The translations under genes were made by a program, and so were the position numbers. Below, piece by piece: positions 550 to 21,285 of a stretch of DNA of 21,545 nt; position 1 is the stretch's first letter; every line of letters starts with the position of its first letter. The DNA is from Candidatus Rifleibacteriota bacterium. GTDB lineage: Bacteria; Muiribacteriota; Ozemobacteria; Ozemobacterales; Ozemobacteraceae. Location of the stretch: positions 1 through 21,545 of the forward strand of contig JBNJGH010000058.1 in assembly GCA_051747585.1 (NCBI GenBank). The letters run 5' to 3'. The notes beneath the pieces are model-generated. The model did not search any database and was not told where the DNA came from. It saw nothing but the letters and a program-made list of their open reading frames with translations.

Positions 550-1872
550 CTACTTTGAGAGACATCCACCGCTCTGAATAAACTGCATTGCCGGGTATAG
601 TTTGTTATTTAGAAAATCAGAGAGAAGTTTAAGGTTTGGATAATTCTGGGCAAGCTTTTCAGCAGAAGTGGAATTTGTTTTTTCCTGGTTTATTAAACGT
701 TCCAGAGAGGGCGTGCGTCCCTTTGAAAATTTTTCCAGACTGGCGAGGAAGCCCATATACCTGGAAAATCCGGCAGAATAGTTGGGAAGAATTGCAAGAA
801 CCCTGTTAAGGTCAATTACCTGAGCCAAAAGAAAATATTGGACCCGAACCCCTTTATAGCTTGCCATTTTTTCGGAAACAAGAAAACGGAAATTAGCTTC
901 TGCATTCTTTAAACTCGACAAGAATGTACTGTAAACAACACAAACATCAGTTAAAATTGATTGAAGTTGCCAGGCATTTTCCCCGGAAAAATCTGCTCCA
1001 AGTGTCCCGGTCGAATAACCTGACACGAAAAGATTTAATGAAGGTTCCAGAGCAAAAAGAAACTGAAGACTTCTACGGGCGACATCAAGCCAAAGATTAC
1101 CCATGCGCTTGTGACATTCATAAAGCGCTCTTGACGGATAAGATAGCCCTGCAGATTTATTGCGCAGCTCTTTTATTTCGGCAAAAGTCGTTTTATAAAA
1201 ATCCGAATTTAGAAACGCTCTTGAAAATCGATAAATGTCGGCTAGATTTGCCAGAACATCTGAATAGCCACCGGGGGAAGTCAGGATCTTTGAATATGCA
1301 GTATCATCCAAGCCAATATCAGAGATATCTGAAAGGCTGATATTTTTGGGGGTGACCGGCGAAAAGAAAAGGGAACAGATTTCTGACCCGGCTTTATTTC
1401 TGTGTTTTCCCCATTTAAAAATGATTTCGCTATTATACAGGTTAGATTCAATCGCATTGGCTGTTTTTGGTTTAACCCGGGATGCGCCGATGTCCAGGTT
1501 CAGGTCTTCAACCTGAGAATAAAGCTGAGTCTGCTTATCGTCAATTCCTGTAAGTTTGGCAGAGTTTCCCTTGCCCTCAAGCTTAAACTCTAAATCTGAA
1601 AAAAACGGTGATTCATCTCTGACAATTGGCGTTAAAACCCTTTTGGAGTTGGAGATTCCCAAGGTATCAAAGGCTTTCGGATTTATCCAGAGTTCTTCAT
1701 TCAGATCCTCAATTACTTTTTGAGAACAAACCAAGGTTGAAATATGCTTGTCGCCGAACTCAATCTGAGACCTGAAAGCTCGCATGCCCATAATAAAACC
1801 GCCAATTACCAGAGAAACTATAAGAACTCCAATCATCACTTCAATAAGTGTAAAACCAGTCATTTTATTCAT
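550..1872 (-). CDS. Large (440 aa) type IV prepilin-like protein with N-terminal cleavage/methylation motif
   Basis: MNKMTG|FTLIEV followed by a ~20-aa hydrophobic helix. GGAGG RBS upstream; ATGA overlap with the upstream gene. Confidence 0.88.
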   Translation of the reverse strand: MNKMTGFTLIEVMIGVLIVSLVIGGFIMGMRAFRSQIEFGDKHISTLVCSQKVIEDLNEELWINPKAFDTLGISNSKRVLTPIVRDESPFFSDLEFKLEGKGNSAKLTGIDDKQTQLYSQVEDLNLDIGASRVKPKTANAIESNLYNSEIIFKWGKHRNKAGSEICSLFFSPVTPKNISLSDISDIGLDDTAYSKILTSPGGYSDVLANLADIYRFSRAFLNSDFYKTTFAEIKELRNKSAGLSYPSRALYECHKRMGNLWLDVARRSLQFLFALEPSLNLFVSGYSTGTLGADFSGENAWQLQSILTDVCVVYSTFLSSLKNAEANFRFLVSEKMASYKGVRVQYFLLAQVIDLNRVLAILPNYSAGFSRYMGFLASLEKFSKGRTPSLERLINQEKTNSTSAEKLAQNYPNLKLLSDFLNNKLYPAMQFIQSGGCLSK

Positions 1873-2468
1873 TCTATACCTCCGAAGGGCAACAGCTTGA
1901 CCTGCGTAGCGAAAGCAAATTCTCCGTCGCCACTTTTGAGAACCATGTTGAATTTTACCTGGTTTGGATTTGTTACAGTAAAGGTCAACCTTTTTAAAGA
2001 TTTTATAAGCACCTTTTCTGTATTAAGGCCACTCTTAGACCTGGAACCAATTAAGAAATTCTTCTCTTTTTCACTTAAAAAGCCCGCGCCTGATCTCCTG
2101 GTAAGCGACACCAGTCGATAAAGTGCTTCGTCTCTGTCTCCTGAATTTACTCCCTTTTCGGGCTGGCAATATAAAACATTTACCTCGTTTACAGAATTTC
2201 GAGTAACGAGAAAAGTAGCGGTTTCGCCCATAGCCGGCCGGATAACTTCAAGGCTTTCACGAATATGATCAATAAGCAGATTTGCAGACTTTGTACCCTC
2301 CTGATTGATTACAATACGATCCACAAGTCTTGTTTCTGAATCGCTCTTCTGCAAAAAATAGCTAAAAAACATACCTGTAAACAAAGCGAGGAGAATTGAA
2401 ACTATAATTATTTCAACCATAGTGAAGCCACTTCTAATTTTAAACCTTGTTTTTTTTACAAGAGTCAT
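1869..2468 (-). CDS. Type IV prepilin-like protein (PilW/GspJ-like minor pilin), ~199 aa
   Basis: Basic leader MTLVKKTRFKIRSG|FTMVEII plus hydrophobic helix. Start reassigned from 2534 to ATG 2468 because this gives a normal class III signal peptide. Confidence 0.85.
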   Translation of the reverse strand: MTLVKKTRFKIRSGFTMVEIIIVSILLALFTGMFFSYFLQKSDSETRLVDRIVINQEGTKSANLLIDHIRESLEVIRPAMGETATFLVTRNSVNEVNVLYCQPEKGVNSGDRDEALYRLVSLTRRSGAGFLSEKEKNFLIGSRSKSGLNTEKVLIKSLKRLTFTVTNPNQVKFNMVLKSGDGEFAFATQVKLLPFGGIE

Positions 2469-2610
2469 TTGAATTCTTTTTCTGAAGCAAACGAAGAGCA
2501 ACAAGAACTGGAAAAAATCATTACAGTTAAACACCTCTCTTGATGAGATTATGGTGAGATTATTTCAAGATAACGAAGCAGCCTTAATTTTTTTACAGAT
2601 ACTTTATCTA

Positions 2611-2644
2611 TAAAGGTTAACGTTTGCGAAATCAGATTTGTTCC
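2611..2644 (-). promoter_or_regulatory. Putative ECF sigma promoter for the 2468->550 prepilin pair
   Basis: Minus strand reads GGAAC aaatctgatttcgcaaa CGTT aac CTTTA (17-nt spacer). Confidence 0.7.
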
Positions 2645-2677
2645 CTAATAAAATCGTTCCAGCCATAAAAAATAACC

Positions 2678-2711
2678 GGAACATTCTGTTATATTCTGTC
2701 GTTTTACATTA
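2678..2711 (+). promoter_or_regulatory. Putative ECF sigma promoter upstream of 2906
   Basis: GGAAC attctgttatattctgt CGTT tta CATTA (17-nt spacer), divergent from the 2611..2644 copy. Confidence 0.7.
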
Positions 2712-2791
2712 TAAAATACAAAAATTTAAAGTGTAAAAGACTTTAAGCAGGGATCAAAAATGTCTTATTTATAGCTCTTATATATTTATTG

Positions 2792-2816
2792 TGACATTTA
2801 ATCAGAGCTAATGTCA
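2792..2816. promoter_or_regulatory. Inverted repeat, possible operator
   Basis: TGACATT-N11-AATGTCA in the divergent intergenic region. Confidence 0.3.
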
Positions 2817-2852
2817 ATCAAAAAGCAAATGAGTTACTGTTAAAAGGCAAAT

Positions 2853-2882
2853 TTGGCACAATCTTAATTAAATCCTTATAAT
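2853..2882 (+). promoter_or_regulatory. Putative sigma70-type promoter for 2906
   Basis: TTGGCA-N18-TATAAT, then RBS-like GAAAGGGA and ATG 2906. Confidence 0.55.
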
Positions 2883-2905
2883 TAGATATAGAAAGGGACA
2901 AATTC

Positions 2906-4204
2906 ATGCTGAATATTAATAAAACGGGCATGGTGCTGCCATTAATTGCATTAGCCGCTCTATCAATGGGGTTATTTATAGCTTCTTTAACATCTATGGG
3001 TCAAAGCTCACGTGCACGCATCACTCATCTTAACAAATCGCAGGCTTGCTATTATATTGCCCAGTCCGCTTATCAAAAGCTGATTGCCCGCATTCATAAG
3101 GAAGGTTGGTACAATCGCTGTTTTAAAAGCGGCCCACACCGGGAAATAAACCAGAACCTTCTTGATGGCTCATACGATTTACATGTAGAAAACACCCCCG
3201 GTCCAAACAAAGATTTTCAGATGGATATCTACATAAGAAGCCGCTTTGTTGAACATTCACGACTTTATTTCTGGCGAGTCATGTACCGCAGCGATTTACT
3301 TGATATATCTAACCGCAACTGGGTTGTTGAATACGCAAGCCTGCCTGAAGAAAATTTTCCTGCTGCTGCAGAGACAGGCGAATTTGCATCTAAAATTGAC
3401 AAGCTGATTAAAGAACGAAAAGCCAATGAATCAGCTACTGATGATCTTTCAGCAAAAATCATTCCGGCAACTACAATTAACGATGTACTTGATATCATCG
3501 GCAATCCAGACCCTAAAGCCACAAATACAGATGAATTTGAAAAAACGGTAAAGTTGCCCTCTTCCATAAAAGGAATTCCCCCCACTCCGTTTCCTGTTGC
3601 CCAGCCTGAGCCCGGCCCTGAAGAACCGGTGCCGGCTCCCATTCCTGATAATTCAGCGAGCACAGAGCAACCTTTGGATCCAAGTAATGACCCTGCTACA
3701 AACACAACCGCTGATGACACCCCGTTTCAAGGCTGGGCTGATAAGCCATCTGATTTAGGCGCCAACCTTGATCCGGGAGGCTTGACAGACGGCCAAGCTT
3801 ATGATCCCGGGCCGCAAATAAGTTCTGCTGAAACTTACTACAACAATTCTTCTGATATCGCTGAATCTGCGGAGATGCTATATACACTAACCAGAAAAGA
3901 AGCAGGGCTCTACATGCCCTCCGATGACCTTATCAGGGATGGATTAATCAAAGCACTCGAGCTTGTTAAAACCATTAATGCCAATGTTTCAAAAATGGAT
4001 GAGCTGTTAGCCAAAGCAAAGGAGCTGGCCGAAAACGTCTCTGTTACCCAAAGTTCGGGGACCCGTAACCAGCTGGAAAGCATAGTTAAGGAAATTTCTA
4101 CTCTGAATACTGAAAACGAAAGCCTTTACCAACAACTAAAAACGCTTTGTACTGCTATTGTTGGGCAATCACAGCAATATTCAGATTTTGGTAATGGATT
4201 TTAG
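2906..4204 (+). CDS. PilX/GspK-like minor pilin with Pro/acidic linker and C-terminal helical (coiled-coil-like) region
   Basis: NKTG|MVLPLI hydrophobic helix lacking Glu5, then QACYYIAQSAY, matching the PilX N-terminal QAxYxAExG pattern. PFPVAQPEPGPEEPVPAP linker. Confidence 0.72.
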   Translation: MLNINKTGMVLPLIALAALSMGLFIASLTSMGQSSRARITHLNKSQACYYIAQSAYQKLIARIHKEGWYNRCFKSGPHREINQNLLDGSYDLHVENTPGPNKDFQMDIYIRSRFVEHSRLYFWRVMYRSDLLDISNRNWVVEYASLPEENFPAAAETGEFASKIDKLIKERKANESATDDLSAKIIPATTINDVLDIIGNPDPKATNTDEFEKTVKLPSSIKGIPPTPFPVAQPEPGPEEPVPAPIPDNSASTEQPLDPSNDPATNTTADDTPFQGWADKPSDLGANLDPGGLTDGQAYDPGPQISSAETYYNNSSDIAESAEMLYTLTRKEAGLYMPSDDLIRDGLIKALELVKTINANVSKMDELLAKAKELAENVSVTQSSGTRNQLESIVKEISTLNTENESLYQQLKTLCTAIVGQSQQYSDFGNGF

Positions 4205-4357
4205 AATTTATATTGTATAATTTTATACATTCATGCCTATATAAACGTTTCCACTATTATTTAAAATAATTTAACAAACAGCCAATCAGCCCTCTCAAAG
4301 AATTCTGCTTCTCTGTTTGCAATATTATTTTACTGAATTCTTTTATAATCTTTTTTT

Positions 4358-4383
4358 TCCTGTCCCAAACAGGATTTTTTTTT
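4358..4383 (+). terminator. Possible intrinsic terminator
   Basis: TCCTGT-cccaa-ACAGGA 6-bp stem followed by T9. The stem is short. Confidence 0.4.
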
Positions 4384-4430
4384 CGTTTTCTTTAATAGAA
4401 CTTGCGTATATTATTTTGCAGGAGGAAAAA

Positions 4431-6029
4431 ATGAAGTTTCTGAGAATATTACTTGTTATCGCGCTAATTTGCGCTTTTTTCCCAGGAATCGCTTATTCAA
4501 GACTGACCGAAGGCAGCGGAGTTGATGAAAATGAAATAAATGAGGCTCGAGCGGAAATGATGGAAGCCTATGAAGCCCGGCGAGAATTTGGCCAGCAAAG
4601 ATACTATTCAGACGATCCGCCAGAGCAAAACAAGACTGAAGATGCTATTGATGAATATTTTGATCTCTGGGGCAACGGTTTGGAATTCACACATAAAAAA
4701 CTAACAGAATATATCGAATCGAGAAGAAATTTTACTAAGAACACATATAACAAAGGTAAAGATTTAGCAGATGCCTATTCTGAGTTTCGTAATAATGCCA
4801 AAGAGAAGCGCAACGAAATACTTGAAGACCTTTATAATAGGGGCAAAAAAGGGTTTCAAAACACTTTTGCAGGCATAAAGAGATTTGGTGAATGGATTAA
4901 TAGTATAGAAGTAGATGCCGATCTTGATGTCAGCATAACCGCAGGCGGTGACCGCGAGGTTGAAGATACAGCACCATCTGATGGTTTCGTTTTAGATGAG
5001 GGCGATGAGGACTTAACCAGCCCCCCCCATAACGCCCATCCAGACCATTACCTGCCTGAAGAAGCAGATCAAGGCTCTCAACCAGTCCCTGACCATTACC
5101 TGCCTGAAGAAGCAGATCAAGGCTCTCAACCAGTCCCTGACCACTATCTGCCTGAAGAAGCAGATCAAGGCTCTCAACCAGTCCCTGACCACTATCTGCC
5201 CGAAGAAGCAGATCAAGGCTCTCAACCAGTCCCTGACCACTATCTGCCCGAAGAAGTTGTCCAGGATAATGGCTCAGTGCCAGATCATTATCTGCCCTCC
5301 GTTCCTGGAAAAGTAAGGGTTGGTGGTTCAGTGCTTCGTGTAAGAACCACCCCATGGGGTGAAATTGTTGATCATCTCGCTGATGGTGCCGACATAAAAA
5401 TAATCGGCGAAAAAGATGACTGGTATCTTATTTCTCATAATGGTCAACAGGCCTATGTTCACAAAAATTATGTAGATACCCCTGAGCAAGATGCCTCAAT
5501 GCAAGAGCCTGTAACCGATGCTCCTGCCTCTGAGTCTGATCCCTCAGACAATATAGTTACTGACCCATCCTTGCTTTCAGGAAACGGAACCTCGCAAGCG
5601 GCTCTTTCCTGGGCTCTTAACCAAACGGCAGGAGGCAACCAGAATGGCTATAATCGCAACAACAGCCTGACTTCAAAAAACCCTGCATGTTGGAATAACT
5701 GGTGCCTGGCATTTTGTGCCACTGCTTACGGCAGAAAAATACCTGAATTAACCGCTGGATCTGCCATTGATTCATATTATAAATTTGAGCAGGCAGGCAA
5801 AATACAGCATTCAAGCCCACCACCTGCAGGCGCAGTTCTGTTTCAGGATAAAACCGGCAGAAATCCCTGGGGCCATATTTTTATTGCAACCGGAGAAACT
5901 GATTCAAGCGGCGATCCAATAATAGTTACCAGTGGTTGGCCTGGATATGACGGAATTCATAAGATAACACTGAGCAAGATGCGACAAATGTATTCTGCAA
6001 AATATCTGGGCTGGGCTCTTCCTAATTAA
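4431..6029 (+). CDS. Secreted SH3b + CHAP/NlpC-P60-like cell-wall hydrolase with internal 16-aa repeats (532 aa)
   Basis: GGAGG at 4421 before ATG 4431 (start reassigned from 4317). Signal peptide MKFLRILL...AYS. SH3b motif LRVRTTPWGEIV...IIGEKDDWYLI...AYVHKNYV. Catalytic-type NWCLAFC ... GAVLF ... WGHIFIA. Confidence 0.82.
   Translation: MKFLRILLVIALICAFFPGIAYSRLTEGSGVDENEINEARAEMMEAYEARREFGQQRYYSDDPPEQNKTEDAIDEYFDLWGNGLEFTHKKLTEYIESRRNFTKNTYNKGKDLADAYSEFRNNAKEKRNEILEDLYNRGKKGFQNTFAGIKRFGEWINSIEVDADLDVSITAGGDREVEDTAPSDGFVLDEGDEDLTSPPHNAHPDHYLPEEADQGSQPVPDHYLPEEADQGSQPVPDHYLPEEADQGSQPVPDHYLPEEADQGSQPVPDHYLPEEVVQDNGSVPDHYLPSVPGKVRVGGSVLRVRTTPWGEIVDHLADGADIKIIGEKDDWYLISHNGQQAYVHKNYVDTPEQDASMQEPVTDAPASESDPSDNIVTDPSLLSGNGTSQAALSWALNQTAGGNQNGYNRNNSLTSKNPACWNNWCLAFCATAYGRKIPELTAGSAIDSYYKFEQAGKIQHSSPPPAGAVLFQDKTGRNPWGHIFIATGETDSSGDPIIVTSGWPGYDGIHKITLSKMRQMYSAKYLGWALPN
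5040..5297 (+). repeat. In-frame 48-bp tandem repeat encoding PDHYLPEEADQGSQPV
   Basis: Units start at 5040, 5088, 5136 and 5184 (identical in protein), 5232 (diverged second half) and 5280 (PDHYLP only). Confidence 0.97.
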
Positions 6030-6035
6030 TGAGAG

Positions 6036-6995
6036 GTGAATAAAATGAAAATCAGGATATTTATTTTGTTAACTATTATTCTTATCGCTATGACAAATCA
6101 TCTATATTCGGCAAAACTTGCAATAGGCTTTGACGCAGATCAGATTGGAATTTTAAATTCATCTGACTTTAAAGGTCCCGTCGGTTTGGCAATGCCCTAT
6201 GGTCCTCAAGCAATTAAAAATATTGACGAAACCACCAAAATTCTAGATTCTGTTGGCAGAAAAATCGTAACTGTTGATAAAGAGGGAAAGGTTCTTGACA
6301 CCCTTGATCTCAAAAGTATACCAAAACAATATTTGCCAATAGACTTTTGTATTAGTGACGAAGGCGATAAAAAAGCTCTTTGGCTTCTTGGTAATAATGG
6401 AAAAACCCTTATAAAGTTAAGCTTAGAAGGAAAAGTTATTGGCGTTGTAAAAAGTGACCATGACTTTTTTAAAGAAGCCTTTTTCCCTGATACTATCCAT
6501 GCAGGCCCGGAGGGGCAAATAATAATAAGCGATTCAAGCCTGAAAAAAATTGCAATAATGGATAAAAATGCAAAATTGATTCGTACAATAGATATGGTTG
6601 GCGAAAGCTGTTTTGTTAACAGCAAACATGAAATAATGATGGTTTATCACGAATTTGACTTCTGGAATCTGAGAAAAGTTGACATAAATGGAAAATTGAT
6701 TAACGACAGGCCTATTTGGAAAGTTAAAGCAGATTCAATTAAAATCGTTGGGGTTTTTAATAATTCAGACTTTCTTATTCATTATCAGTTACTGACCCCT
6801 CAAGGCCCAATTGAAAAAGTAGCTCGCTGTAACGGGCATGGTGAATTAATTAACGTTTCTGTGCTGGAGACCCTTCCGAATTCAAAACACCCTGTTGCTA
6901 TTGGAACTAAGGGCTTTATCCTTTATTTTGGAGAACTCAGTGACAAATGGTTGGAACTTACAGGAGTTTCTCTTTCGACTATGGCCGAAGGTTAA
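6036..6995 (+). CDS. Secreted protein, probable NHL/beta-propeller fold
   Basis: Signal peptide ending LYS-A. Repeated blade-like motifs GPQAI, ILDSVGRKIVTVDKEGK, PIDFCI, PDTIHAGPEGQIIISDS. Starts 6 nt after the previous stop, with a GAGAGG RBS. Confidence 0.65.
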   Translation: MNKMKIRIFILLTIILIAMTNHLYSAKLAIGFDADQIGILNSSDFKGPVGLAMPYGPQAIKNIDETTKILDSVGRKIVTVDKEGKVLDTLDLKSIPKQYLPIDFCISDEGDKKALWLLGNNGKTLIKLSLEGKVIGVVKSDHDFFKEAFFPDTIHAGPEGQIIISDSSLKKIAIMDKNAKLIRTIDMVGESCFVNSKHEIMMVYHEFDFWNLRKVDINGKLINDRPIWKVKADSIKIVGVFNNSDFLIHYQLLTPQGPIEKVARCNGHGELINVSVLETLPNSKHPVAIGTKGFILYFGELSDKWLELTGVSLSTMAEG

Positions 6996-7003: not shown

Positions 7004-7037
7004 GGAACAAAAAATAAACAGCCGGCATTTGCCTTTA
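7004..7037 (+). promoter_or_regulatory. Putative autoregulatory ECF promoter upstream of the sigma gene
   Basis: GGAAC aaaaaataaacagccgg CATT tgc CTTTA (17-nt spacer, one mismatch to CGTT). Confidence 0.6.
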
Positions 7038-7129: not shown

Positions 7130-7696
7130 GTGTGTTTTAAAAATACCCTGACAAACCAGGATGACGAGCAGCTCGTTTTGTCCTTTCTAAAAGGAAATAA
7201 AGCGTGCTTCGAAGTATTATTCGATCGCTATCTTTATAGAATTGTTAGATATATATCAACTTTAATTAAAGACCCGGATGAAGCTAAAGATTTAAGTCAG
7301 GAAGTTTTTATAAAAGTTCACAAGGCATTGCCAACCTACAAATCCTCAGGAAAGTTCTCCAGCTGGTTATTCACGATAGCCAGAAGAACGGTTATAGATT
7401 CGCAGCGAAAAAAGAAACGTGCCATTGTCTTTAAGATTAGAGACGAAGAACTTCAAGACATTCCGGGAGAAACCTCCGCTGACGAAAAATTAGTTGAAGA
7501 ATCGGTTTCAGAAATACTTCAAGGTATCAATGAGGCACACAAAGAGATTCTTCTGCTACGAATAGTTGAAGGTATGTCATACAACAAGATTGCAGAAATT
7601 ACCGGTCAGACCGCCGGCAATTTGCGTAAAATAGTTTATAGAACTATCAAAAAGCTTTATCCCGACAACGACCGTGAACAAACGCAGGAAAACTGA
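7130..7696 (+). CDS. ECF-family RNA polymerase sigma factor
   Basis: 188 aa. Region 2 DEAKDLSQEVFIKV...FSSWLFTIARRTVID; region 4 EILLLRIVEGMSYNKIAEITG. Confidence 0.95.
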   Translation: MCFKNTLTNQDDEQLVLSFLKGNKACFEVLFDRYLYRIVRYISTLIKDPDEAKDLSQEVFIKVHKALPTYKSSGKFSSWLFTIARRTVIDSQRKKKRAIVFKIRDEELQDIPGETSADEKLVEESVSEILQGINEAHKEILLLRIVEGMSYNKIAEITGQTAGNLRKIVYRTIKKLYPDNDREQTQEN

Positions 7697-7744: not shown

Positions 7745-8728
7745 ATGAGCTGCAAAAAAGTTGAAAACTGGATTGAATCCAGGAATTGCACTATCAACGA
7801 ACTCCCCGCTGAACTAAAGAGCCATGCTAAAACTTGCAAAGCTTGCGCCTCTTTCCTTAAAGCCATTGGTTTATTATCGGGCTCATTACAAAATTATGAG
7901 ATTAGCAAAGCAGACCTTGCGGAAATAAAGACTAATGTATTCAATGAACTAGGCATCACCCCTGTATCTTCAGCAAATTCAACCTCCGGCTCACACTCCA
8001 GGTTAAGCGCTCTGTTAACCAGACCAGCATCCATAATGGTTGCGGCAATAATCGCAACAGGGGCGTTAATCCTGCCCTTAGCCATCAGAAAAGACCCACA
8101 AAAAAACATAAAAAGTAACCAGCCAGTTGTTAAATCCGTGAAAAAAGTCCAACAAGCCGACCAACAAACTTCGGCAATTATTGCAGGCCAAAATGCCAAA
8201 TTAAAAGATGCTTCAGGTAATTGGAGCGAATTAAGCGACACTCGCCTGCAAATGGTTTCAGGAAACTCGCTTGTTTTGAATAATACTGATTCCAGAGCGA
8301 AACTGGTATTCTCAGAAGGAACAATATTGTTTATTCATGGTTCAGGCGAACTAAGACTCGAAAATAATTCTCTAAAAGCTGTAAGACTCGATGCAAAACT
8401 AATCTTGTATGCAGGAGATCGGCCTTGTAACCTTGAAATTAGCGAGACAAAATTAAGTTTTGCCGCTAAAAAGCAAATTTTCGCAATAGATACGGAAAAA
8501 AATAGTATCAAGGTATTTCAAGGAAGGTTAGACATTGATGCTGCCAATGAAACAAAAAAACTAAAAGCCGGCGAATGGTATGATTCTACAACTCAAACCA
8601 TACAATCAATAAACGACAAAAAGCCAGACCAACCGACGTTAAACCACCATAATCCTATTCCTGTTTCTCAAAACGATGAGCGAGGCAATCCTGTGGAATC
8701 TGCCGCTGATGGCTTTAAGCCAGATTAG
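7745..8728 (+). CDS. Membrane anti-sigma factor: zinc-binding N-terminus, one TM helix, FecR-like extracytoplasmic domain
   Basis: MSC...HAKTCKAC (ZAS HxxxCxxC). TM IMVAAIIATGALILPLAI. FecR-like SRAKLVFSEGTILFI and IKVFQGRL...LKAGE. Directly downstream of the ECF sigma; AAGGAG RBS. Confidence 0.85.
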   Translation: MSCKKVENWIESRNCTINELPAELKSHAKTCKACASFLKAIGLLSGSLQNYEISKADLAEIKTNVFNELGITPVSSANSTSGSHSRLSALLTRPASIMVAAIIATGALILPLAIRKDPQKNIKSNQPVVKSVKKVQQADQQTSAIIAGQNAKLKDASGNWSELSDTRLQMVSGNSLVLNNTDSRAKLVFSEGTILFIHGSGELRLENNSLKAVRLDAKLILYAGDRPCNLEISETKLSFAAKKQIFAIDTEKNSIKVFQGRLDIDAANETKKLKAGEWYDSTTQTIQSINDKKPDQPTLNHHNPIPVSQNDERGNPVESAADGFKPD

Positions 8729-11000: not shown

Positions 11001-11405
11001 ATGAAATTTCATCGAAAAGGCCTGACATTTATTGAACTAACTATAGTTGCCGTATTGGGGACATTAATCATTGGCATGACCTATAAAATCTACAGTAACA
11101 TTTTTAACAGCTCTGATAAAATTTCAGGTGATTCTCAGTATTATCTTGAGCTGGGTAAATTTTCGGCACAGATAAAGTCAGACCTGCGAAGTGCGGTAAA
11201 GGTAATTAAAGCTAATGACAAATTGACTATTTTTACTGCAACTGAAGCCTATGATAAAGACGAAAAGATTGTTTATAAAGTTAAGGAAGAATCTAACCAG
11301 ATAGTTCGCAAATCCAAAGATCGATCCAGGATTTTTAATTTTGGAGATCCGCCTGAAGGGGCGGGAAAACTGGTTCTTAATATTGGAAACGAGGTAAAGA
11401 AATGA
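11001..11405 (+). CDS. Type IV prepilin-like protein (134 aa)
   Basis: MKFHRKG|LTFIEL plus hydrophobic helix. Start reassigned from 10929 to ATG 11001, 1 nt after the upstream stop. Confidence 0.85.
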   Translation: MKFHRKGLTFIELTIVAVLGTLIIGMTYKIYSNIFNSSDKISGDSQYYLELGKFSAQIKSDLRSAVKVIKANDKLTIFTATEAYDKDEKIVYKVKEESNQIVRKSKDRSRIFNFGDPPEGAGKLVLNIGNEVKK

Positions 11406-11959
11406 TCGTTTTAAAAAATCGACTTTTAGCAAGTATTGCCCTGCTATTAATGATGTTTTGCATTGTTGTTTCTCTTTCAGCAGAATCTGAGGATTCGGCC
11501 TCCGCCTCTCTTAATCTACAAATAGGTTTCGAAAACCAGCAACTTAATTTCAAAGTTAACACCCCCCAATTTCAAGACTTTGAAACTGACACCTGGGTTG
11601 ATTCTGACTCTGAATTAATAAAAAAAACCTTATCAAACCCAAATCCGTCCCAGGAAGATTTCACTCCAGATGAGTATAGTATTAACGACATTCCTTCTCA
11701 CCCATCACAACAGGATAACATCCCACCCAAGAAGTTGCTGCCACAACCTTTTGAAGATCCAAATGATGAAATTGTTTTAAGTAAAAGAGAAGCTGCAATA
11801 GAATTTCTAGAAAAAAGGCCTGATATTTTGGAATTTGTTAAAGTAAATACTGGCAAAACTGATCCGATAGAAGTTCTTGAACTTTGGGTCTATAGCATAA
11901 TGAAAAGCGATGACTCAGACTGGAAAGAAGGCAAACGAATACTTGAAGAGCTTGAATAG
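11402..11959 (+). CDS. Secreted acidic hypothetical protein with C-terminal 'RPDI' domain
   Basis: Signal peptide ending SLSA. GAGG RBS; 4-nt overlap with the upstream gene. C-terminus is similar to the N-terminus of ORF 14564. Confidence 0.7.
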   Translation: MIVLKNRLLASIALLLMMFCIVVSLSAESEDSASASLNLQIGFENQQLNFKVNTPQFQDFETDTWVDSDSELIKKTLSNPNPSQEDFTPDEYSINDIPSHPSQQDNIPPKKLLPQPFEDPNDEIVLSKREAAIEFLEKRPDILEFVKVNTGKTDPIEVLELWVYSIMKSDDSDWKEGKRILEELE

Positions 11960-13892: not shown

Positions 13893-14489
13893 GTGAAATT
13901 TGTTAAAATCGTTTTAATTATGTGTTCTATTTTCTTTTATGGTTGCTCAGACCAGAATAACGTCCCTATCGGACAACTAATCAAAATATCCGGAACAGTT
14001 GAAATCCGAGAAGCTCCAGGGCAAAAATTCAAAACTGCAAGTGTTAACCTGAAATTGTTTAACGATATGGCGGTCAGAACCCAGGAGAACAGCAAAGCTA
14101 AACTTTCTTTTACATGTGGAGGGCAACTAAAACTAAGTTCAAACGCGTTTTTTCAGGTAAAATCCGGCCAGGTTCTGGGCAAGCAAACTTCAGGCTCAGG
14201 TTTCTACGAAATTGACAAACAGCCAAAACCACTATCAATAGAGACTCCGCATGGTGTTACAACAATTCTGGGTACCAAATTTCGTCAAATGGTCAATGAA
14301 ACATCGGTTGAAATTTTCCTCAAAGAAGGCTCAATCGAATTTTACGACAATGCCGGAAATAAAACCAAAATTGAATCAGGTCAAAAACTGCTGGTCGAAA
14401 AAGGCAAACCCCTCACTGAGGCTGTGCCAACAGATGACTTCGACGTAGACAAGCTTTTTAATGAAGATAAATCTCTGAAGAATTTTTAA
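13893..14489 (+). CDS. FecR-domain lipoprotein
   Basis: GGAGG RBS; lipobox-like FYG|C. FecR motifs VRTQENSKAKL, IETPHGVTTILGTKF, LKEGSIEF, IESGQ. Confidence 0.85.
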   Translation: MKFVKIVLIMCSIFFYGCSDQNNVPIGQLIKISGTVEIREAPGQKFKTASVNLKLFNDMAVRTQENSKAKLSFTCGGQLKLSSNAFFQVKSGQVLGKQTSGSGFYEIDKQPKPLSIETPHGVTTILGTKFRQMVNETSVEIFLKEGSIEFYDNAGNKTKIESGQKLLVEKGKPLTEAVPTDDFDVDKLFNEDKSLKNF

Positions 14490-14504: not shown

Positions 14505-14538
14505 GGAACAAAACATTAGACAGCTTCGTTGTTCTTTA
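14505..14538 (+). promoter_or_regulatory. Putative ECF sigma promoter upstream of 14564
   Basis: GGAAC aaaacattagacagctt CGTT gtt CTTTA (17-nt spacer), followed by AGGAGG RBS and ATG. Confidence 0.72.
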
Positions 14539-14563
14539 ATAGGAACCCATCAGGAGGAATTAT

Positions 14564-16261
14564 ATGAAACCTGCCAACATTAAATTGTTTTCTCTTTTTA
14601 TTGCATTCATGCTTGTATTTTCGAGTATTACATTTGCAATTGACATGAATGCATTAAACGATTTTTTTGCCCATCGCCCCGATATTCCTCAAAACATCAG
14701 CAAATGGTCAGGCAATACAGATAAAGTCTGGATTCTCAGAGAATGGGTAAAAATCACTACCGAACGAAATGAAGACTATCGAACAGCTCAAAGAATTTTA
14801 AGAGGTGAGTCAGTTGCACCTCCATCTGATAATTCTGGTGATAACCGGACTGACCCGGGACTTCCATCTGATGGCTTCGGTGAGCCGGTTGATGTTGATG
14901 CATACCCAAAACCAGCGAACGACAATGGCTGGGGAATACACTGGTTTCCCACCGAATCACAATCTCAAGAAGAAGTCGACAGATTTGTCAAAATTATTGG
15001 TGACCTCAATATAAAATGGGTGCTTTTTCTCAACCCCGGAACTGACCTGAACGCAAGCGAATACCTGGTTTCGCGGCTCGTAGAGAATAATATCATGCCG
15101 GTTATGAGGCTTTATTACAGCACCATCTATCCACCTTCGGAAGATGAATTGAATCAAACCAGAGCGTTGGTAAGCCATTATTTAAATAAAGGGGTTTTTT
15201 ACTTTCAGATTTACAACGAGCCTAATCTTCCCTGTGAATGGGAAGGCGGACAATTTCCTGAAAATTCAATTTCCAAGTGGGCTGATGCATTTATACCAAG
15301 AGCTGAAGCAGTGCTTAGTGTCGGCGGAATTCCCGGAATTGGCGGTCCGGCATTTGGGTATATAAAAGTTGATGGATCTTACGGCAATGGCTCTCAATAC
15401 TTTAGAGGAATGATTAATGAAGTTGTTAACCGAGGCAAAAAAGAGCTATTGGCCAAATCAGTCGTAGTTATTCACAACTACACAACCGATTCACATCCCT
15501 CTGATCGCTCTCAGACTGAAAAATTCTGGCAATTTGAAACCTATCACAATATTCTAGGCGAATACGGACTCGATATACCAATGATCGGCGGTGAAGGCGG
15601 CACCAGACCAGAAGATGTGGGCGGCGATATGAACAAGCTTGCAGAAAATGTTATGGCTTGCTATGACTACATGCCCGAAGCGCCAAAATACTATATGTGT
15701 TTTTCTCATTGGCTTTTAGCAGCTCCTGAAGGAAATGAATGGCAAAATCACGCGATGTATAAAACAGATGGTAGTCGCCTACAGCGAGCCCTTATAGAAA
15801 GAATGACAGCCGCAAACCCGCCAGTTATAAGTGCTGGCTCCAACCCGGCTGCACCCTCTGAACCTTATGAACCACCACAGCAAACAGAAACTCCGGATTC
15901 TGAAACTCGCTTGCGCGAATATGCCCCCAGAGAAGGCGAAACCTGGTTTCCACGCGATGGTTGGTATGACAGCGGAGACTTGCGTGAAGCTTTTATGAAG
16001 AAATACAACGCCTCAACCATGAACGATGCTCTAATAACAAAGATGCGCGAACAATGTCCGAATGTTGGCGATACCGGCTCAGTTACCTTTGATTGCGCCC
16101 TTGGCTTCTATGAAATCATGGAAGCAATGGATCTGGGTGGCTACACCTGGAGCGGAGACTGGGATTACCCCATCCCCGAATCAGCTTTTGATTCCTGGCG
16201 CAATGAAGGCCATAAACATATGCCGGCCGGAAGAGAAGTCGGCATTAAAAGAGTCAAATAA
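14564..16261 (+). CDS. Secreted clan GH-A (TIM-barrel) glycoside hydrolase-like protein with extra N- and C-terminal domains
   Basis: Signal peptide ending TFA. WGIH, IKWV, MPVMRLY, YFQIYNEPN (acid/base Glu), IHNY, PMIGGEGG (nucleophile Glu). Pro/Ser linkers flank the barrel. Confidence 0.8.
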   Translation: MKPANIKLFSLFIAFMLVFSSITFAIDMNALNDFFAHRPDIPQNISKWSGNTDKVWILREWVKITTERNEDYRTAQRILRGESVAPPSDNSGDNRTDPGLPSDGFGEPVDVDAYPKPANDNGWGIHWFPTESQSQEEVDRFVKIIGDLNIKWVLFLNPGTDLNASEYLVSRLVENNIMPVMRLYYSTIYPPSEDELNQTRALVSHYLNKGVFYFQIYNEPNLPCEWEGGQFPENSISKWADAFIPRAEAVLSVGGIPGIGGPAFGYIKVDGSYGNGSQYFRGMINEVVNRGKKELLAKSVVVIHNYTTDSHPSDRSQTEKFWQFETYHNILGEYGLDIPMIGGEGGTRPEDVGGDMNKLAENVMACYDYMPEAPKYYMCFSHWLLAAPEGNEWQNHAMYKTDGSRLQRALIERMTAANPPVISAGSNPAAPSEPYEPPQQTETPDSETRLREYAPREGETWFPRDGWYDSGDLREAFMKKYNASTMNDALITKMREQCPNVGDTGSVTFDCALGFYEIMEAMDLGGYTWSGDWDYPIPESAFDSWRNEGHKHMPAGREVGIKRVK

Positions 16262-16284
16262 AGGGTTCTGGCAAACAAGAAGGA

Positions 16285-18093
16285 TTGAAAATGACCCATT
16301 TCAAAGCAATTCTGCTGTTAACAACGTTCTATTTTTTCTCGGTAAACCTGCCTGTTTATTCAGATAGCACACAATGGCTTGCTTTTGGAAAAATTGACAC
16401 CCCTCAGAAACTCTGGCATTCACTTACCAACACAATAGAATTAGCCCCTGTTTATAAAGCGGCTTTAAAAGTAGCCTCAAATGACGATTACGCAAAAGTT
16501 CTTATAAAGGAATTGCATAAAAAGCCTGCTCTTCAAGCGCTTGACAAAGTTTGGTATTTTGCATTAGCAAAAAGCCCCAATTCTAATTTTTTTTCAGCAT
16601 GGAGTATTTGGCATGAAAATAAAGAAAAAAACAGAGAGCTTTTTATTTCAGGAAATCAATTAATAAATTCTAAAACTGAATTTCCTGAAATTTTTGCACA
16701 ATTAAATAGCCAAAATGAAATTGAATTTAGATTCGAGAAATTGCCTTATGAAGAACTTGAAAAAACACTTCAGAATTATCTTCAGCAGCAGAATCAAATG
16801 CTTGAACGAAGATGCTTAATGCAAAAAAGCAGAATAAAACGTGAGCTGCAAAAACATCCTGATAAAATATTTTCGGAAAAAAAAATTAATTCATGTCCTT
16901 TAAATGGCACTTACAGAATTGATAAAAATTCATCAGAAATAACGGTAACCTGCAACCATTCTCGATTAACTGCAAGTTATTCCAATGATGATAATGAAGC
17001 TGTTATAATTGGAATAGCTTTAATAGAAATATTGAAAGAAACTTCCAGCTTTAAAATAGTCTTTGACGATGATAACAAGATATTTTCTTTCGAACTTAAC
17101 TATAGCTCTGAAACAAGCAAACATAAAAAACATTTAAATACATGGGCCTCATCTATCAATTGGTTTACAATTAACAACGCTGCTTCAGTAGCAGACCCAA
17201 TCTCTAATTTTCAAATAATATCTACAATTCCTGTAAATCATCTCTTTAAAATTCTTCTGGCGCACTCAAATGAGTTCAAAATACTCGAAAATCAACTGCC
17301 AGAACTTGCTCTCAAACCTTTTTGTATTGAACTTTTTGGTGGGCCTCCCCGGTATAAAATGATTGGTCCAATTAAAATTAAAGTTCCTCTAAAGTTTGAA
17401 ATATTAAAACAGCTTATCAATAAAATGGAAAACAAATCGCTCCCCTTTACTATTAAAAAGCAGGAATTGCTTGGCCGAGAGGCTTTAAGCATTAAACCTT
17501 CTCCACAAGCAAGCAGATTCAAAGTATCTGGTAATTACCAGATCAAATTCGATGAATTTTACATTTTTGCAAGTCACAATAATGAAACTTTGGTAGCACT
17601 AGGTGGAGACACTGCAATACAAACCTTGATGACAGAAAGCGGCGAATCTGCAACAGTCAATATCTGGAACGATTTGAAAGAAGAACATCTTAAATTTGCT
17701 ATAGCATATAGACTTGATCTATTGGCGAAAAGATTACTTTACTTCGCAAATATATTCCTCTGGGGAAACGAACAAAGAGCTTGTTCATCATCTTTAAGTA
17801 ACTGGATAAGGAACAATCAGCAAGACTTTATTAATCTGAACCAAAAGGATGAATTACCTGAAAGCCTAAAGAAATGTTGCCCGCGTGATGGAATAGTCAT
17901 ATTTAATAATAGAAAAAAAGTTGGCTGTGCGATTCATAACTATCAAAATCTTGACAGAATAAAAACTCAACTTTTTTCGGCCAACATTCCGATTGGTCGA
18001 TGGTTACGTATTTATCTTAGAAAAACTTCAAACGGCAGTGAAATAATTTTTGACATAAAGCATCCACAGGAGGGCAAAAACCTTGAAAAATAG
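16285..18093 (+). CDS. Exported hypothetical protein with two Cys/His pilin-head-like modules
   Basis: 602-aa ORF with signal peptide ending VYS (start may be ATG 16291). Two C...CPxxG...Cx(1-2)H motifs. Confidence 0.7.
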   Translation: MKMTHFKAILLLTTFYFFSVNLPVYSDSTQWLAFGKIDTPQKLWHSLTNTIELAPVYKAALKVASNDDYAKVLIKELHKKPALQALDKVWYFALAKSPNSNFFSAWSIWHENKEKNRELFISGNQLINSKTEFPEIFAQLNSQNEIEFRFEKLPYEELEKTLQNYLQQQNQMLERRCLMQKSRIKRELQKHPDKIFSEKKINSCPLNGTYRIDKNSSEITVTCNHSRLTASYSNDDNEAVIIGIALIEILKETSSFKIVFDDDNKIFSFELNYSSETSKHKKHLNTWASSINWFTINNAASVADPISNFQIISTIPVNHLFKILLAHSNEFKILENQLPELALKPFCIELFGGPPRYKMIGPIKIKVPLKFEILKQLINKMENKSLPFTIKKQELLGREALSIKPSPQASRFKVSGNYQIKFDEFYIFASHNNETLVALGGDTAIQTLMTESGESATVNIWNDLKEEHLKFAIAYRLDLLAKRLLYFANIFLWGNEQRACSSSLSNWIRNNQQDFINLNQKDELPESLKKCCPRDGIVIFNNRKKVGCAIHNYQNLDRIKTQLFSANIPIGRWLRIYLRKTSNGSEIIFDIKHPQEGKNLEK

Positions 18094-20212
18094 ATTTTTT
18101 ACCTTTTTTATTTTTATCTTCTTAACGACAGTAGTTTTTGGAAACAGTGAAATGCTTTGTGTTTCTCCATGGACAAGTCCTATTTTTTTCCCCCTACTGG
18201 AACGAAACGTTACTTTAACTTCCAGAAATGGTATCGCCTCAATGGAAGTGGAAGATATTTTTGAAAAATCTTTTTATTTTAGATGTGAGGGAGTTTACAG
18301 ATTTAGATTACCAGAAAATGCTTTTGTTTCAGGTTTTTGGATAAATACTGATGAAAAGCACTGGGTTAGAGGAAAAGCGAAAGAGATTTCTGAAACAAAG
18401 GTTCAAGCTAATCAACACAAACAGATGAATCCTTATTATTTTCAGCAAGAGGATGGAGAATTATTATTAAAGGTTTCACCGATCGAAAATGTCAAAAGGA
18501 TCGGAGTCAGGTTCAGATGTTTTTTTCCGGCAAAGGGCTGCGAAAATAATTTTCACCTGGATCTTCCATTAGGTTTTGTTCATAAAATTTTTGGTAATAA
18601 TCTAAATTTTCCCAAAAAAGCACAATTTAGCTTAAAAGCCAAAATTATAGATGTAAACGGGATTTCTAATATTCAATGCCAGGGAATTAATAAAACTAAT
18701 GTACAAATAAGTTCATTAGAAAACGAAAATGCAATATCTGTGTCTCTTTCAGCAAATAAAATGAACGATATTCGGCTAACATGGGAAACAGATAAGAAAG
18801 AAGATTTCACCACAGCAGCCTATATTGCACCTTGGGGTAAGAAATATAGTTTCATAAGAATTAACAACTGTAATATTCAAGAGATAAAACAAATAAAAGA
18901 TCTTAATATTGTTGTTGACCTAAGTGGTTCTGTAGGTCCAAAGAATCACAAAAGAGCAATTACATTGATCAAAAAGATTTTTACTTATGATTTGATGGAA
19001 CCTGAAATTTACTTATTAAAAAATAAAAAGCTTCAACCCGCCAACTTTAAAAAGCTTGAAACAGCCAAAACTTTTGGACCAGATTCCTGGGAAGAAATTC
19101 AAACCATAGATCATGGTCCTTGTATTATCATTACTGATGGCATTAGACTCGATCGCGAAACCATAAAAACAACATACAGAGCTAACGGTCGAAAGCCGGT
19201 CTGGGTTATAATCGTTGGCAGTCAGAAGGTTAATAATATGCTTAAAGCATCTAATGACCGTTATGGCGGCGTAGTTTACCTTGAGGGTGAAAATTTTGCC
19301 AAACAATTGAAACTTCAATTACCAGATATTTTAAAGTCAATTTCTTCAACCCCTAAGCTTTATAGCGAAAACGATCAGCCATGTTACCCAATCTTCAAAA
19401 TTCCTCTTAGCCGAGCTTATTATTTAATGCCATTAAAAAAACAAAGTTATGTAGTGAAACAAAATTCTGGCAAAGAATTAATTAAAATAAATTCCAAATA
19501 TAATTCTATTAAATTAGAAAATAATTTTGTCTCTTTAATTGCATACCAACAAATTAAAATGCTTGAAACAATAAAACAAGCTCCCCAGGTTTTAAAAAAA
19601 ATAACTGAACTTGGGAAAAATTATTTGATAGCGACTGACTATACAGCATTCGTAGAGGTTTCAGATAAAGCTACTCAATCAAATAATGAAATTGTAAAAA
19701 ATCTAGATTCTTTACTTAATATATTATTCCCATTAGAAAATATATTCTTCTCAACAGTTAGTTGGTCAAATGAGAAAGCCAAAGTAAGATCATGCTATGC
19801 GAATCAGCGAATACTTAAAACAGCAATAAATAAATTTAAAAACAATGGCTATGCCTTGGATAACCTGCAACATGACTTGTATTCAGGAAGTTTTGAAATT
19901 AAGTCATTAATTGAAAAAGGTTATTTACGTGCTCAGCTTTTTCAACCCACTCCACTTTGTGAATATAGAATTCTCGGACATTTAAATGAAGACTTTCAAA
20001 TTATTTGTCTGGCTCATGGAAAAGCTAGTGAACCCCATACTTCTATCGAAAAACTTGTAAAAAATTATTGTCTTAAAAGAAATCTCAAAACAAAAAATTT
20101 TAAAATTCCACTGGATATTTATGGAACAGCGCCAGAAAAAGACAATTCAGGCTTCCTTTGGGTTATAAAAAAACTTATGCCATTTTGTTGTCTACTTGGG
20201 TTTATGCTTTAA
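18083..20212 (+). CDS. Exported VIT + vWA domain protein with C-terminal pilin-head-like module
   Basis: AGGAGG RBS and TTG start. Signal peptide. VIT motif EGVYRFRLPENAFVSGFWIN. vWA MIDAS IVVDLSGS and IIITDG. LGKNYLIATDYTAFV typical of VIT-vWA tails. Confidence 0.82.
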   Translation: MKNRFFTFFIFIFLTTVVFGNSEMLCVSPWTSPIFFPLLERNVTLTSRNGIASMEVEDIFEKSFYFRCEGVYRFRLPENAFVSGFWINTDEKHWVRGKAKEISETKVQANQHKQMNPYYFQQEDGELLLKVSPIENVKRIGVRFRCFFPAKGCENNFHLDLPLGFVHKIFGNNLNFPKKAQFSLKAKIIDVNGISNIQCQGINKTNVQISSLENENAISVSLSANKMNDIRLTWETDKKEDFTTAAYIAPWGKKYSFIRINNCNIQEIKQIKDLNIVVDLSGSVGPKNHKRAITLIKKIFTYDLMEPEIYLLKNKKLQPANFKKLETAKTFGPDSWEEIQTIDHGPCIIITDGIRLDRETIKTTYRANGRKPVWVIIVGSQKVNNMLKASNDRYGGVVYLEGENFAKQLKLQLPDILKSISSTPKLYSENDQPCYPIFKIPLSRAYYLMPLKKQSYVVKQNSGKELIKINSKYNSIKLENNFVSLIAYQQIKMLETIKQAPQVLKKITELGKNYLIATDYTAFVEVSDKATQSNNEIVKNLDSLLNILFPLENIFFSTVSWSNEKAKVRSCYANQRILKTAINKFKNNGYALDNLQHDLYSGSFEIKSLIEKGYLRAQLFQPTPLCEYRILGHLNEDFQIICLAHGKASEPHTSIEKLVKNYCLKRNLKTKNFKIPLDIYGTAPEKDNSGFLWVIKKLMPFCCLLGFML

Positions 20213-20290
20213 ATTTTGTCAAATTTGCTTTTCAATTGCCTGGGCGGACTTGATTACTAATACTACTGAAAAATCGAGAGAAAACAAATG

Positions 20291-20866
20291 TTATTCTTCC
20301 CATGTGAGAGAATCTTCTACTGAGTCCTCTGAAAACGTTGATTTCTTTGTAGCTCTGAATGAAATAGTTCTCTTCTCCGCCTCATAATCGCCAAACTGTA
20401 AACTAACTTCAACAAAGCTTGCTTTTTCGGGAGAAACTGCGTTCTTGCCTGTCTGGTCATAAAAGGAACTAGAAAACTCAAAGTTTTTTATTCCTTTGGT
20501 CATTTCAATAAATTCAATTTTTTTTATTTTTTGGTCTGCTTGCCGAATAACCTGTCTTTTTTCTGAATCAAATCTGTATATGAGATTATCAACCGGCTTA
20601 CCATTGCTGTCTACTGCGCCAATAACCTGCAGACTGTCTTCGTCGACAAAAGTACAACCCAAAGCTGAAGCCAGATCCTGTTTAAACATGATTTCAAGCG
20701 TTCGCATTCTATTCTCGCAGCCTATCCTGGCCCCTGAAGCTTGTTGACCACTCAAAACAAGGTTCATAATACCAATTACAAGCGAAATAAAAAGAACAAA
20801 CAAAGTAATTGTTACAATTACCTCAATCAATGTGAAACCATGCAATTTTTTAAGAGATTGAATCAT
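20291..20866 (-). CDS. Type IV prepilin-like protein (PilW/GspJ-like, 191 aa)
   Basis: KKLHG|FTLIEV plus hydrophobic helix; ATGA overlap with the upstream gene. Confidence 0.88.
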   Translation of the reverse strand: MIQSLKKLHGFTLIEVIVTITLFVLFISLVIGIMNLVLSGQQASGARIGCENRMRTLEIMFKQDLASALGCTFVDEDSLQVIGAVDSNGKPVDNLIYRFDSEKRQVIRQADQKIKKIEFIEMTKGIKNFEFSSSFYDQTGKNAVSPEKASFVEVSLQFGDYEAEKRTISFRATKKSTFSEDSVEDSLTWEE

Positions 20867-21285
20867 GAATTTTCAGGAACAAAAAATAAACTCTGAAGAA
20901 AAATTTCATGTTTGAGTTTTTTGTTGCCCGGCATACTCCATTTTACTTTGGTTTTAATTTTAAAAGCCGAAATTGGAGGTTTTGCATTTTCAAAACCTGA
21001 CGCTGGTACTGGTAATAAAACTTTTTCAGGCGAAATTTCAAACTCTGTATTGTTAACTAGTCTGACTTCAGGCTTAAGCATCTCAGGGGTAATCTTGTCG
21101 GCAAGTTTTAGTTCTTCTATTTTGCTTGAAGCCAAAGAAGTTGCAATAACATAGTTTCTGGCATTCACGCTCTGGCCCTTGATTGACGAAAATTTCGGCA
21201 TCATTGGAGCAAGAGCCAAAACCAGAATAGCAATGGCGATTACCAGCTCAACCAGACTAAAACCATCTTTTTGCAATTTAAACAC
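20863..21285 (-). CDS. Type IV prepilin-like protein (PilV/GspI-like, 140 aa)
   Basis: QKDG|FSLVELVIAIAIL, then ATSLASSKIEELK and C-terminal KIKTKVKW, typical of PilV/GspI-like minor pilins. Confidence 0.88.
   Translation of the reverse strand: MFKLQKDGFSLVELVIAIAILVLALAPMMPKFSSIKGQSVNARNYVIATSLASSKIEELKLADKITPEMLKPEVRLVNNTEFEISPEKVLLPVPASGFENAKPPISAFKIKTKVKWSMPGNKKLKHEIFLQSLFFVPENS

Follow-up and report, generated by a model that had tools for sequence, protein, structure and literature searches.

Two described gene sets, GspI-GspJ-GspK of the type II secretion system (T2SS) and PilV-PilW-PilX of type IVa pili, place small pilins with a glutamate at position 5 (Glu5) beside a larger pilin that lacks it. 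Pilins may also be modular, as in Streptococcus sanguinis, where PilB (with a vWA domain) and PilC (with a lectin domain) have a functional domain grafted on for display (PMC8179133, in the part of the paper accessible to us), and the accessible text on the Kil/Tad pilus of Myxococcus gives that filament four interchangeable tips (PMC12075869). Here we describe a stretch of 21,545 nucleotides from a Candidatus Rifleibacteriota bacterium (contig JBNJGH010000058.1), hereafter the window, which is an entire contig (C58) of a 4.14-Mb genome (G000; G-numbers label genomes). As in GspIJK and PilVWX, small Glu5 pilins lie beside a larger Glu5-less pilin. Unlike these sets, however, the locus is without machinery and is one of dozens of sets per genome, and its I-like pilin carries a 250-residue helical domain; relatives have CHAP or SH3b domains fused to the corresponding pilins. 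From the genes, the window is predicted to encode two sets that form alternative type IV pilus tips, and a functional link of one of these tips with a CHAP amidase is well supported. Comparisons were made with 87 genomes, 50 of them other genomes of the same family.

A preliminary description of the window had listed seven prepilin-like genes, and all seven open reading frames (ORFs) were found at the positions given. A class III leader of the form G-F/L-T/S-x-x-E was present in five of the seven, and the Pfam N_methyl model scored above its cut-off for three and below it for two; ORFs 2906 and 8741 are K-like and without Glu5. Tip set 1 consists of an I-like minor pilin of 440 residues with a large helical domain (550..1872, - strand), a J-like minor pilin of 199 residues (1869..2468, -) and a K-like minor pilin of 432 residues (2906..4204, +), the paralogs of which end in SH3b or OmpA-type domains. 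Tip set 2 consists of a giant K-like pilin of 752 residues (8741..10999, +), a small minor pilin of 134 residues (11001..11405, +) and two minor pilins of 191 (20291..20866, -) and 140 residues (20863..21285, -), which belong to this set in relatives. We assigned the I-, J- and K-like labels from leader type, size and a single fold match. For ORF 8741, a profile made from 12 homologs matched no ComZ chain in the PDB at E values up to 10. Elsewhere in the family, a locus of G045 (L233, contig C2) has two tandem I/J/K sets whose K-like pilins (9008-10123 and 12099-13181) end in an OmpA-type peptidoglycan-binding domain, and 17 kb of G016 (L232, C482:25000-44000) hold three sets like that at 550-4204 together with CHASE2-PP2C, a FecR protein and an extracytoplasmic function (ECF) sigma gene.

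The secreted SH3b-CHAP/NlpC hydrolase of the preliminary description is encoded by ORF 4431 (4431..6029, +; 532 residues). SH3_3 scored above the Pfam cut-off and CHAP below it, Cys425 and His482 were invariant, and the papain-like fold with this Cys-His pair is that of a CHAP/NlpC-P60 amidase. An acidic, proline-rich linker of this protein is made of 16-residue units, encoded by 4.5 copies of a 48-bp repeat (5043-5256); the close homolog P0059 has fewer, diverged copies. A search with the CHAP domain found matches in 26 of the 50 other family genomes and none in 24, some of which are incomplete. In 17 of the 50, distributed over three genera, the window's CHAP domain forms the end of a Glu5-leader pilin of about 600 residues. 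These 17 are three of the five genomes in the window's genus, G019, and 13 of the 15 in genus g15; an eighteenth case (G058) is cut by a contig start. The catalytic His was kept in all 17 fused copies and the Cys in 16. The gene that follows the fusion encodes a K-like pilin related to ORF 2906, and this pilin ends in SH3b in 16 of the 17 loci, the remaining one being cut by a contig end.

The first 420 residues of the fused pilins align along all of ORF 550-1872 at 20-24% identity; in relatives, the I-like pilin of the window has paralogs with a C-terminal CHAP amidase domain. When the whole of G000 was searched by tblastn with the G016 fusion, two matches were obtained, both in the window: residues 3-407 matched 640-1869 (23%, E 1e-12) and residues 404-594 matched 5445-6017 (44%, E 1e-45). 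The K-like partner of this fusion matched 2921-3514, and its SH3b domain matched 5322-5510. A model of the G019 fusion (mean predicted local distance difference test score, pLDDT, 84; predicted template modelling score, pTM, 0.62) comprises a pilin domain, a helical bundle and an NlpC/P60-CHAP domain. After the N-terminal helix, residues 37-156 form a globular pilin fold, with 84 of 89 residues aligned to 5bw0_B at a middling Z of 8.1 and a root-mean-square deviation (rmsd) of 2.9; among the pilins, the fold test covered the I-like family. Judging by its length, we take the 5bw0_B chain to be XcpV, a T2SS minor pseudopilin. The CHAP domain aligned with 6bim_A (Z 10.1, rmsd 3.6, 122 residues) and with 3vpi_A, which has a papain-like amidase fold (Z 9.1). 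Foldseek found nothing at E 0.001 or better for the whole model, and the domains came out only with a wider aligner. Leader and helix, Glu5 pattern, pilin fold and machinery in trans, which are among the marks of a minor-pilin tip set, were found.

Because a tip subunit and the CHAP domain are fused in 17 relatives, tip set 1 likely carries a wall-cutting enzyme. The claim that pilus tips are linked with lytic enzymes can therefore be retained for one tip and the CHAP hydrolase, on the strength of the fusion in relatives. In G016, G017 and G019, the fusion locus also has CHASE2-PP2C, the FecR lipoprotein, a second tip set and an SH3b-propeller pair. When 1.84 billion representatives were searched with the CHAP domain, 147 matches were obtained, one of which (P0052) has a Glu5 pilin leader, and the 26 full-length homologs bore, where named, only Riflebacteria names. 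The fusion is known from Riflebacteria; spread beyond the phylum is not demonstrable from these sequence searches. In another family (L270, G002:C25; L272, G001:C2), an SH3b-CHAP gene and two SH3b-C39 peptidase genes come after genes for Glu5 pilins and an ECF gene.

The gene downstream of the amidase, ORF 6036 (6036..6995, +), encodes a secreted protein that folds as an NHL-type beta-propeller (pLDDT 88; 1q7f_A, Z 22.4, rmsd 3.7, 259 residues aligned) and is the constant partner of SH3b hydrolases. Homologs were found in 48 of the 50 family genomes. In 26 of 31 propeller loci, a part of 163 matches, the gene directly upstream codes for an SH3b or amidase-type secreted protein; three do not fit and two are cut by contig ends. 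In G001, SH3b, CHAP and a homologous propeller (probability 97) form one chain. Prediction of an amidase-propeller complex gave weak support, with a score of 0.41 against 0.00 for the best control, where 116 of the 157 solved pairs and 2 of the 215 mismatched pairs attained the benchmark mark, and only 18 solved pairs and both mismatched ones lay at or below 0.60. Contact agreement among the runs was at least 64% and partner pLDDT at least 81. The propeller accompanies several enzyme classes (CHAP, M23 and others); for such a family-wide partner, a role as carrier or chaperone is no less fitting than one in immunity. Tse1-Tsi1 is an amidase effector/immunity pair of the Pseudomonas aeruginosa type VI secretion system (T6SS). 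Like the window pair, it joins a papain-like amidase fold with a following gene for a secreted all-beta partner. The window partner differs in being an NHL-type propeller that is common to several enzymes and fused to the enzyme in G001, and Tsi1 was not among the listed structural matches of the propeller.

No pilus machinery gene was found when the ORFs of the window were searched. A T2SS gsp operon was considered and rejected: no machinery gene lies in the window and the GspH/I/J equivalogs scored below cut-off. A competence locus was likewise rejected, with all ComG models far below cut-off and ComEC on other contigs, where no strict motif was listed. Elsewhere in G000 we found 24 T2SSE-family, 8 secretin and 18 platform-domain matches and 2 prepilin peptidases, so machinery is available in trans. 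PilT was matched eight times above cut-off and PilM homologs are present too, which suggests retractile pili. Tad-type machinery may be encoded on contig C38; the window pilin leaders themselves are type IVa-like. A pattern scan found 91 Glu5 prepilins in G000, spread over about 53 loci, which makes seven pilins in one window less unusual here than elsewhere.

The ECF/anti-sigma pair of the preliminary description was confirmed. The sigma factor (7130..7696, +) has sigma regions 2 and 4 only, and the adjacent anti-sigma (7745..8728, +) has an HxxxCxxC motif and one transmembrane helix; with an ECF-type promoter before the sigma gene, this is the arrangement of an autoregulated ECF sigma factor with a membrane anti-sigma. 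The motif GGAAC-N17-C[AG]TT occurs four times in the window against 0.24 expected (mean of 100 shuffles, none of which reached four), and its strict CGTT form three times against 0.09; the fourth site needs CATT, a widening made after that site was seen. All four sites are intergenic and lie 59-228 bp ahead of an ORF on the same strand, in agreement with the earlier claim of a shared motif before four transcription units. One (2619..2644, -) points toward the 2468/1872 operon and is also found before the orthologous operon in G022 (L065). Back to back with it, a second (2678..2703, +) points toward ORF 2906, ahead of which there is also a sigma-70-like site with an 11/12 match (2853-2882). The CATT variant (7004..7029, +) precedes the ECF gene and likely serves autoregulation, and the fourth site (14505..14530, +) precedes the glycoside hydrolase gene, as it does the G022 ortholog (L063). 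If co-directional runs with gaps of at most 74 bp are operons, as was inferred, the motifs would cover 13 of the 17 genes.

Control by the ECF sigma was thus supported as a local regulon over the pilin tip genes and the glycoside hydrolase, but not for the CHAP gene, which has no intact motif upstream. The stretches 4375-4430 and 14520-14563 have about 20 bases in common from the CGTT box onward, and the CHAP gene lacks a GGAAC box at the right distance. Possibly, the region ahead of the CHAP gene is a decayed ECF promoter. In G022, a genome of another genus, the motif had 20 matches against 7 in the control. Of these matches, eight are intergenic and lie ahead of genes for pilins or secreted proteins, among them the orthologs of the 2468/1872 operon and of the glycoside hydrolase. 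A matrix built from these eight scored 29 bits at a site outside the matrix, 51 bp before the G022 ECF gene that lies next to the hydrolase ortholog, and this supports autoregulation. Within G000, 6 of 10 ECF genes have a Glu5 pilin no more than 5 kb away, against 14.8% for the 2177 genes of the background. Among 18 anti-sigma homologs, read by eye and kin rather than independent, 17 have a pilin gene within about 3 kb and the last is truncated at a contig end. Proximity of ECF genes to pilins is a trait of the family. It is likely, by inference, that the window motif is read by the local ECF sigma rather than by one of its 9 paralogs. A genome-wide regulon in G000 was rejected as unsupported: there are 49 motif matches, of which a rough filter left 9 intergenic, 4 of these in the window, and the control gave an equal count. 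In G019 (C2:454689-455206), three motif matches with the same 26 bases, 246 bp apart, indicate a tandem repeat. In the G022 ECF locus (L063, C44), a gene for a secreted protein of 3963 residues, from 12708, follows the glycoside hydrolase ortholog.

The secreted GH-A hydrolase that had been proposed corresponds to ORF 14564 (14564..16261, +), and the assignment holds. A weak GH5 match (E 0.0014) was accompanied by invariant Glu219 and Glu344, and the glutamates of the NEP and EG motifs, which mark clan GH-A, were invariant in 29 sequences. The best PDB profile match was a beta-xylosidase (E 0.027). The N-terminal RPDI domain of this hydrolase, 58 residues long, recurs at the C-terminus of a secreted 185-residue protein (ORF 11402; 11402..11959, +), was found in 12 of the 87 genomes and heads several different clan-A-like hydrolases. 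An RPDI-hydrolase gene lies within 7 kb of seven of the eight closest ORF 8741 orthologs, and the eighth ends at a contig edge. As a guess, RPDI may serve tip set 2 as a tag for docking or export. One frame in G021 (L292:700-3597, C404) joins a signal peptide and RPDI to a 752-residue-type pilin without its N-terminal helix; it is a single case and possibly a deletion or assembly artefact.

The window had been read as a single system. Neighborhood comparison did not bear this out: the full order was present in none of the relatives examined, and the five modules that make up the 21 kb, with tip sets of three and four pilins, lie apart in relatives. The full 21-kb gene order is a lineage-specific cluster of these modules. 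Module A is the I/J/K set at 550-4204 with the CHASE2-PP2C membrane phosphatase (11974..13878, +), which is tied to tip set 1 in relatives, and the FecR-domain lipoprotein (13893..14489, +) that co-travels with the phosphatase; they are adjacent in G045 and G047. CHASE2 with SpoIIE and FecR domains were detected in the two proteins, as predicted. Module B comprises the 752-residue K-like pilin, three small pilins, the 185-residue protein and the RPDI-tagged hydrolase, module C the SH3b-CHAP gene and the propeller, and module D the ECF sigma/anti-sigma pair. Module E is formed by ORFs 16285 (16285..18093, +; secreted, 602 residues) and 18083 (18083..20212, +; secreted), which always form a pair; they do so in nine of nine related loci, where neither a pilin nor an ECF gene was called nearby. 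The latter had been called a VIT-vWA protein; a Pfam match upheld VIT, and vWA had a DxSxS motif and no Pfam match. Both had been described as pilin-fused. This applies to 18083, which has an internal pilin-head domain (residues 562-650, E 5e-12, with a profile built without window proteins), and 16285 resembles two pilin heads only weakly (hhalign probabilities 70 and 31). About 12 G000 proteins without a prepilin leader hold one or two internal major-pilin-like head domains (on C126, C35, C36, C12, C49, C3, C59, C19 and others). An Rfam scan of the window gave no match. The contig end (21521-21545, -) is too short for Rfam and presumably matches the conserved 3' end of the 16S rRNA gene; next to it come hairpins and pilin genes, without tRNA or 23S, suggesting that the 16S gene is unlinked. 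Three metatranscriptome runs from one study yielded short contigs that were sparse and covered parts of the window; they were uninformative on level, strand and co-transcription.

We tentatively favor, with somewhat less than even confidence, the reading that an ECF-switched pilus tip works with the wall amidase on the walls of other cells. What is seen directly are the genes, the motif and, in relatives, the same two parts as a fusion, and from these we infer the following steps. An outside signal would release the sigma factor from its membrane anti-sigma, and the sigma would raise the operon to which it belongs, together with tip set 1 and the operon of the glycoside hydrolase. Machinery encoded elsewhere would cleave the pilins and build a retractile pilus primed by one tip set. 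Tip set 1 would present CHAP and an SH3b wall-binding domain, which are fused in relatives and form a separate secreted protein in the window, and the propeller may bind the amidase as carrier or guard during export. Tip set 2 would go together with glycoside hydrolases that bear the RPDI tag. As target we envisage peptidoglycan that living or dead cells expose, for food or DNA. That CHAP is found on one tip type among dozens, and is unmatched in 24 of the 50 family genomes, fits a special job better than a general need.

Several observations weigh against this reading. The window pilin is a distant paralog of the fused pilin, at the 20-24% identity given above, and its closest orthologs (G045, G047) have no adjoining CHAP gene. 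A CHAP tree of 40 rows left the backbone unresolved, so that neither the origin of the window copy from a fused gene nor fission versus fusion could be ordered. In one fused copy (L223:11231-13024, G050:C80), Asn takes the place of the catalytic Cys, and this domain may only bind. K paralogs elsewhere end in OmpA-type domains, and such domains usually attach to the wall of the cell itself. No propeller adjoins the fused operons of genus g15, and the 17 fusion genomes are kin, not independent. The motif covers neither the CHAP-propeller pair nor the two right-hand pilins, and the CHAP gene sits behind a weak terminator-like hairpin (4358..4374, +) that separates it from the K-like pilin gene. 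The G022 matrix ranked the window sites only 15, 32 and 122 of 3155 and missed the 2678 site, and it scored below zero before six of eight other ECF homologs; across G000 the motif was not enriched (7 against 6 in the control). Finally, a literature search for predation by Riflebacteria gave no paper on such a system, judged by title or the start of the abstract.

The same fusion evidence would also serve if the tip-linked amidase and wall-binding domains opened the cell's own peptidoglycan for a bulky tip at the start of the pilus, with the ECF sigma coupling opening to the choice of tip. We consider this unlikely, although it has the OmpA-type domains on K paralogs in G045 and the OmpA or LysM genes of related cassettes in its favor, as well as a precedent in the CHAP hydrolase LytF, which, in the accessible text, promotes extrusion of the competence pilus and showed no fratricide in S. 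sanguinis (PMC13192262). The host of LytF, however, is a thick-walled monoderm, whereas G000 has 8 secretin matches; moreover, most tip sets are without such a domain, the family genomes without a CHAP match count against it even if some are incomplete, and a fused domain would move outward with the tip. Less likely still is that the tip sets are T2SS-like pistons that choose cargo, the enzymes being released to digest polymers and dead cells without contact. The likeness of the pilin domain to a T2SS minor pseudopilin, the many secretins and ATPases of G000, and the presence of RPDI on several glycoside hydrolases beside one tip type, in seven of eight close 752-residue pilin orthologs, agree with such pistons; yet a CHAP domain fused to a pilin could not be released as cargo unless cleaved, and the PilT matches and PilM homologs indicate retractile pili.

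It would also be possible that the window is a mosaic island, in which unrelated envelope cassettes have gathered by the rRNA gene and the motifs and neighbors have no joint function. The complete order is absent from the relatives examined, ORFs 16285/18083 occur elsewhere without pilins, no close ECF homolog was found in any of five same-genus genomes, and with about 53 pilin loci in G000 chance neighbors are common. Against this, the fusions join the same parts, the motif precedes orthologs in another genus, and 28 of the 71 CHASE2 homologs have an I-like pilin of the 550-1872 family no more than about 6 kb away (read by hand, after the window's row and one duplicate had been dropped). As an account of the whole window we regard a mosaic as improbable; for the 16285/18083 pair, it probably holds.

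In the accessible part of PMC7509429, Riflebacteria are given solely as fermentative heterotrophs. A broader form of the favored reading, that of a tip acting on other cells, is that Riflebacteria arm one interchangeable tip with an amidase and a wall-binding domain and others with tagged hydrolases, lyse or strip bacteria by touch, and choose the tip by ECF switches. This extension seems to us doubtful; if it is true, such behavior belongs to a phylum that is uncultured and classed among the fermenters. Catalytic tips would help to explain the dozens of tip sets that Riflebacteria maintain, and the promoter motif offers a way to map which enzymes go with which tip.

The switch proposed here has its closest counterpart in EcfG-type promoters, which have the form GGAAC-N16-CGTT, with CATT as a weaker variant (PMC7083833, accessible part). 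The window motif has the same two boxes, the same variant and a site before the sigma's own operon. Its spacer is 17, however; the anti-sigma is of a membrane zinc type here and NepR there, and the window targets are pilins and secreted enzymes. For the enzyme, the streptococcal hydrolases CbpD, of fratricide, and LytF, of pilus extrusion, are likewise CHAP proteins co-expressed with a type IV pilus and allow the same two readings, attack or passage, but they are separate secreted enzymes of monoderms and not fused to pilins (PMC13192262, as far as its accessible text goes). What the tip amidase cuts bears on this streptococcal debate, in which cutting another cell's wall is set against making room for one's own pilus.

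For the tip itself, the Kil/Tad pilus has shared machinery that serves several alternative minor-pilin tips, the exposed domains of which vary, as proposed here; the Kil tips are of Tad type and depend on a type III secretion system that lacks a needle, and the Kil main text as accessible contains none of the words peptidoglycan, hydrolase and SH3 (PMC12075869). Modular pilins resemble the pilin-CHAP fusion in having a domain grafted onto a pilin, but those named in the accessible part of PMC8179133 carry binding domains and S74 or M26 peptidases, not CHAP. The architecture table seen there, which shows only InterPro-detected domains, has no CHAP, NlpC/P60, SH3b or OmpA accession and lists one LysM architecture; Pfam misses or barely detects this CHAP domain. 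A literature search that left subscription papers mostly outside found neither a pilin-CHAP fusion described nor any account of pili in Riflebacteria. Interchangeable tips and modular pilins are thus known (PMC12075869, PMC8179133), and the pilin-CHAP fusion was not found in that architecture table or in the literature searched. Modular pilins in the accessible literature mostly display binding domains; an amidase pilin with a wall-binding partner makes a tip that could be catalytic.

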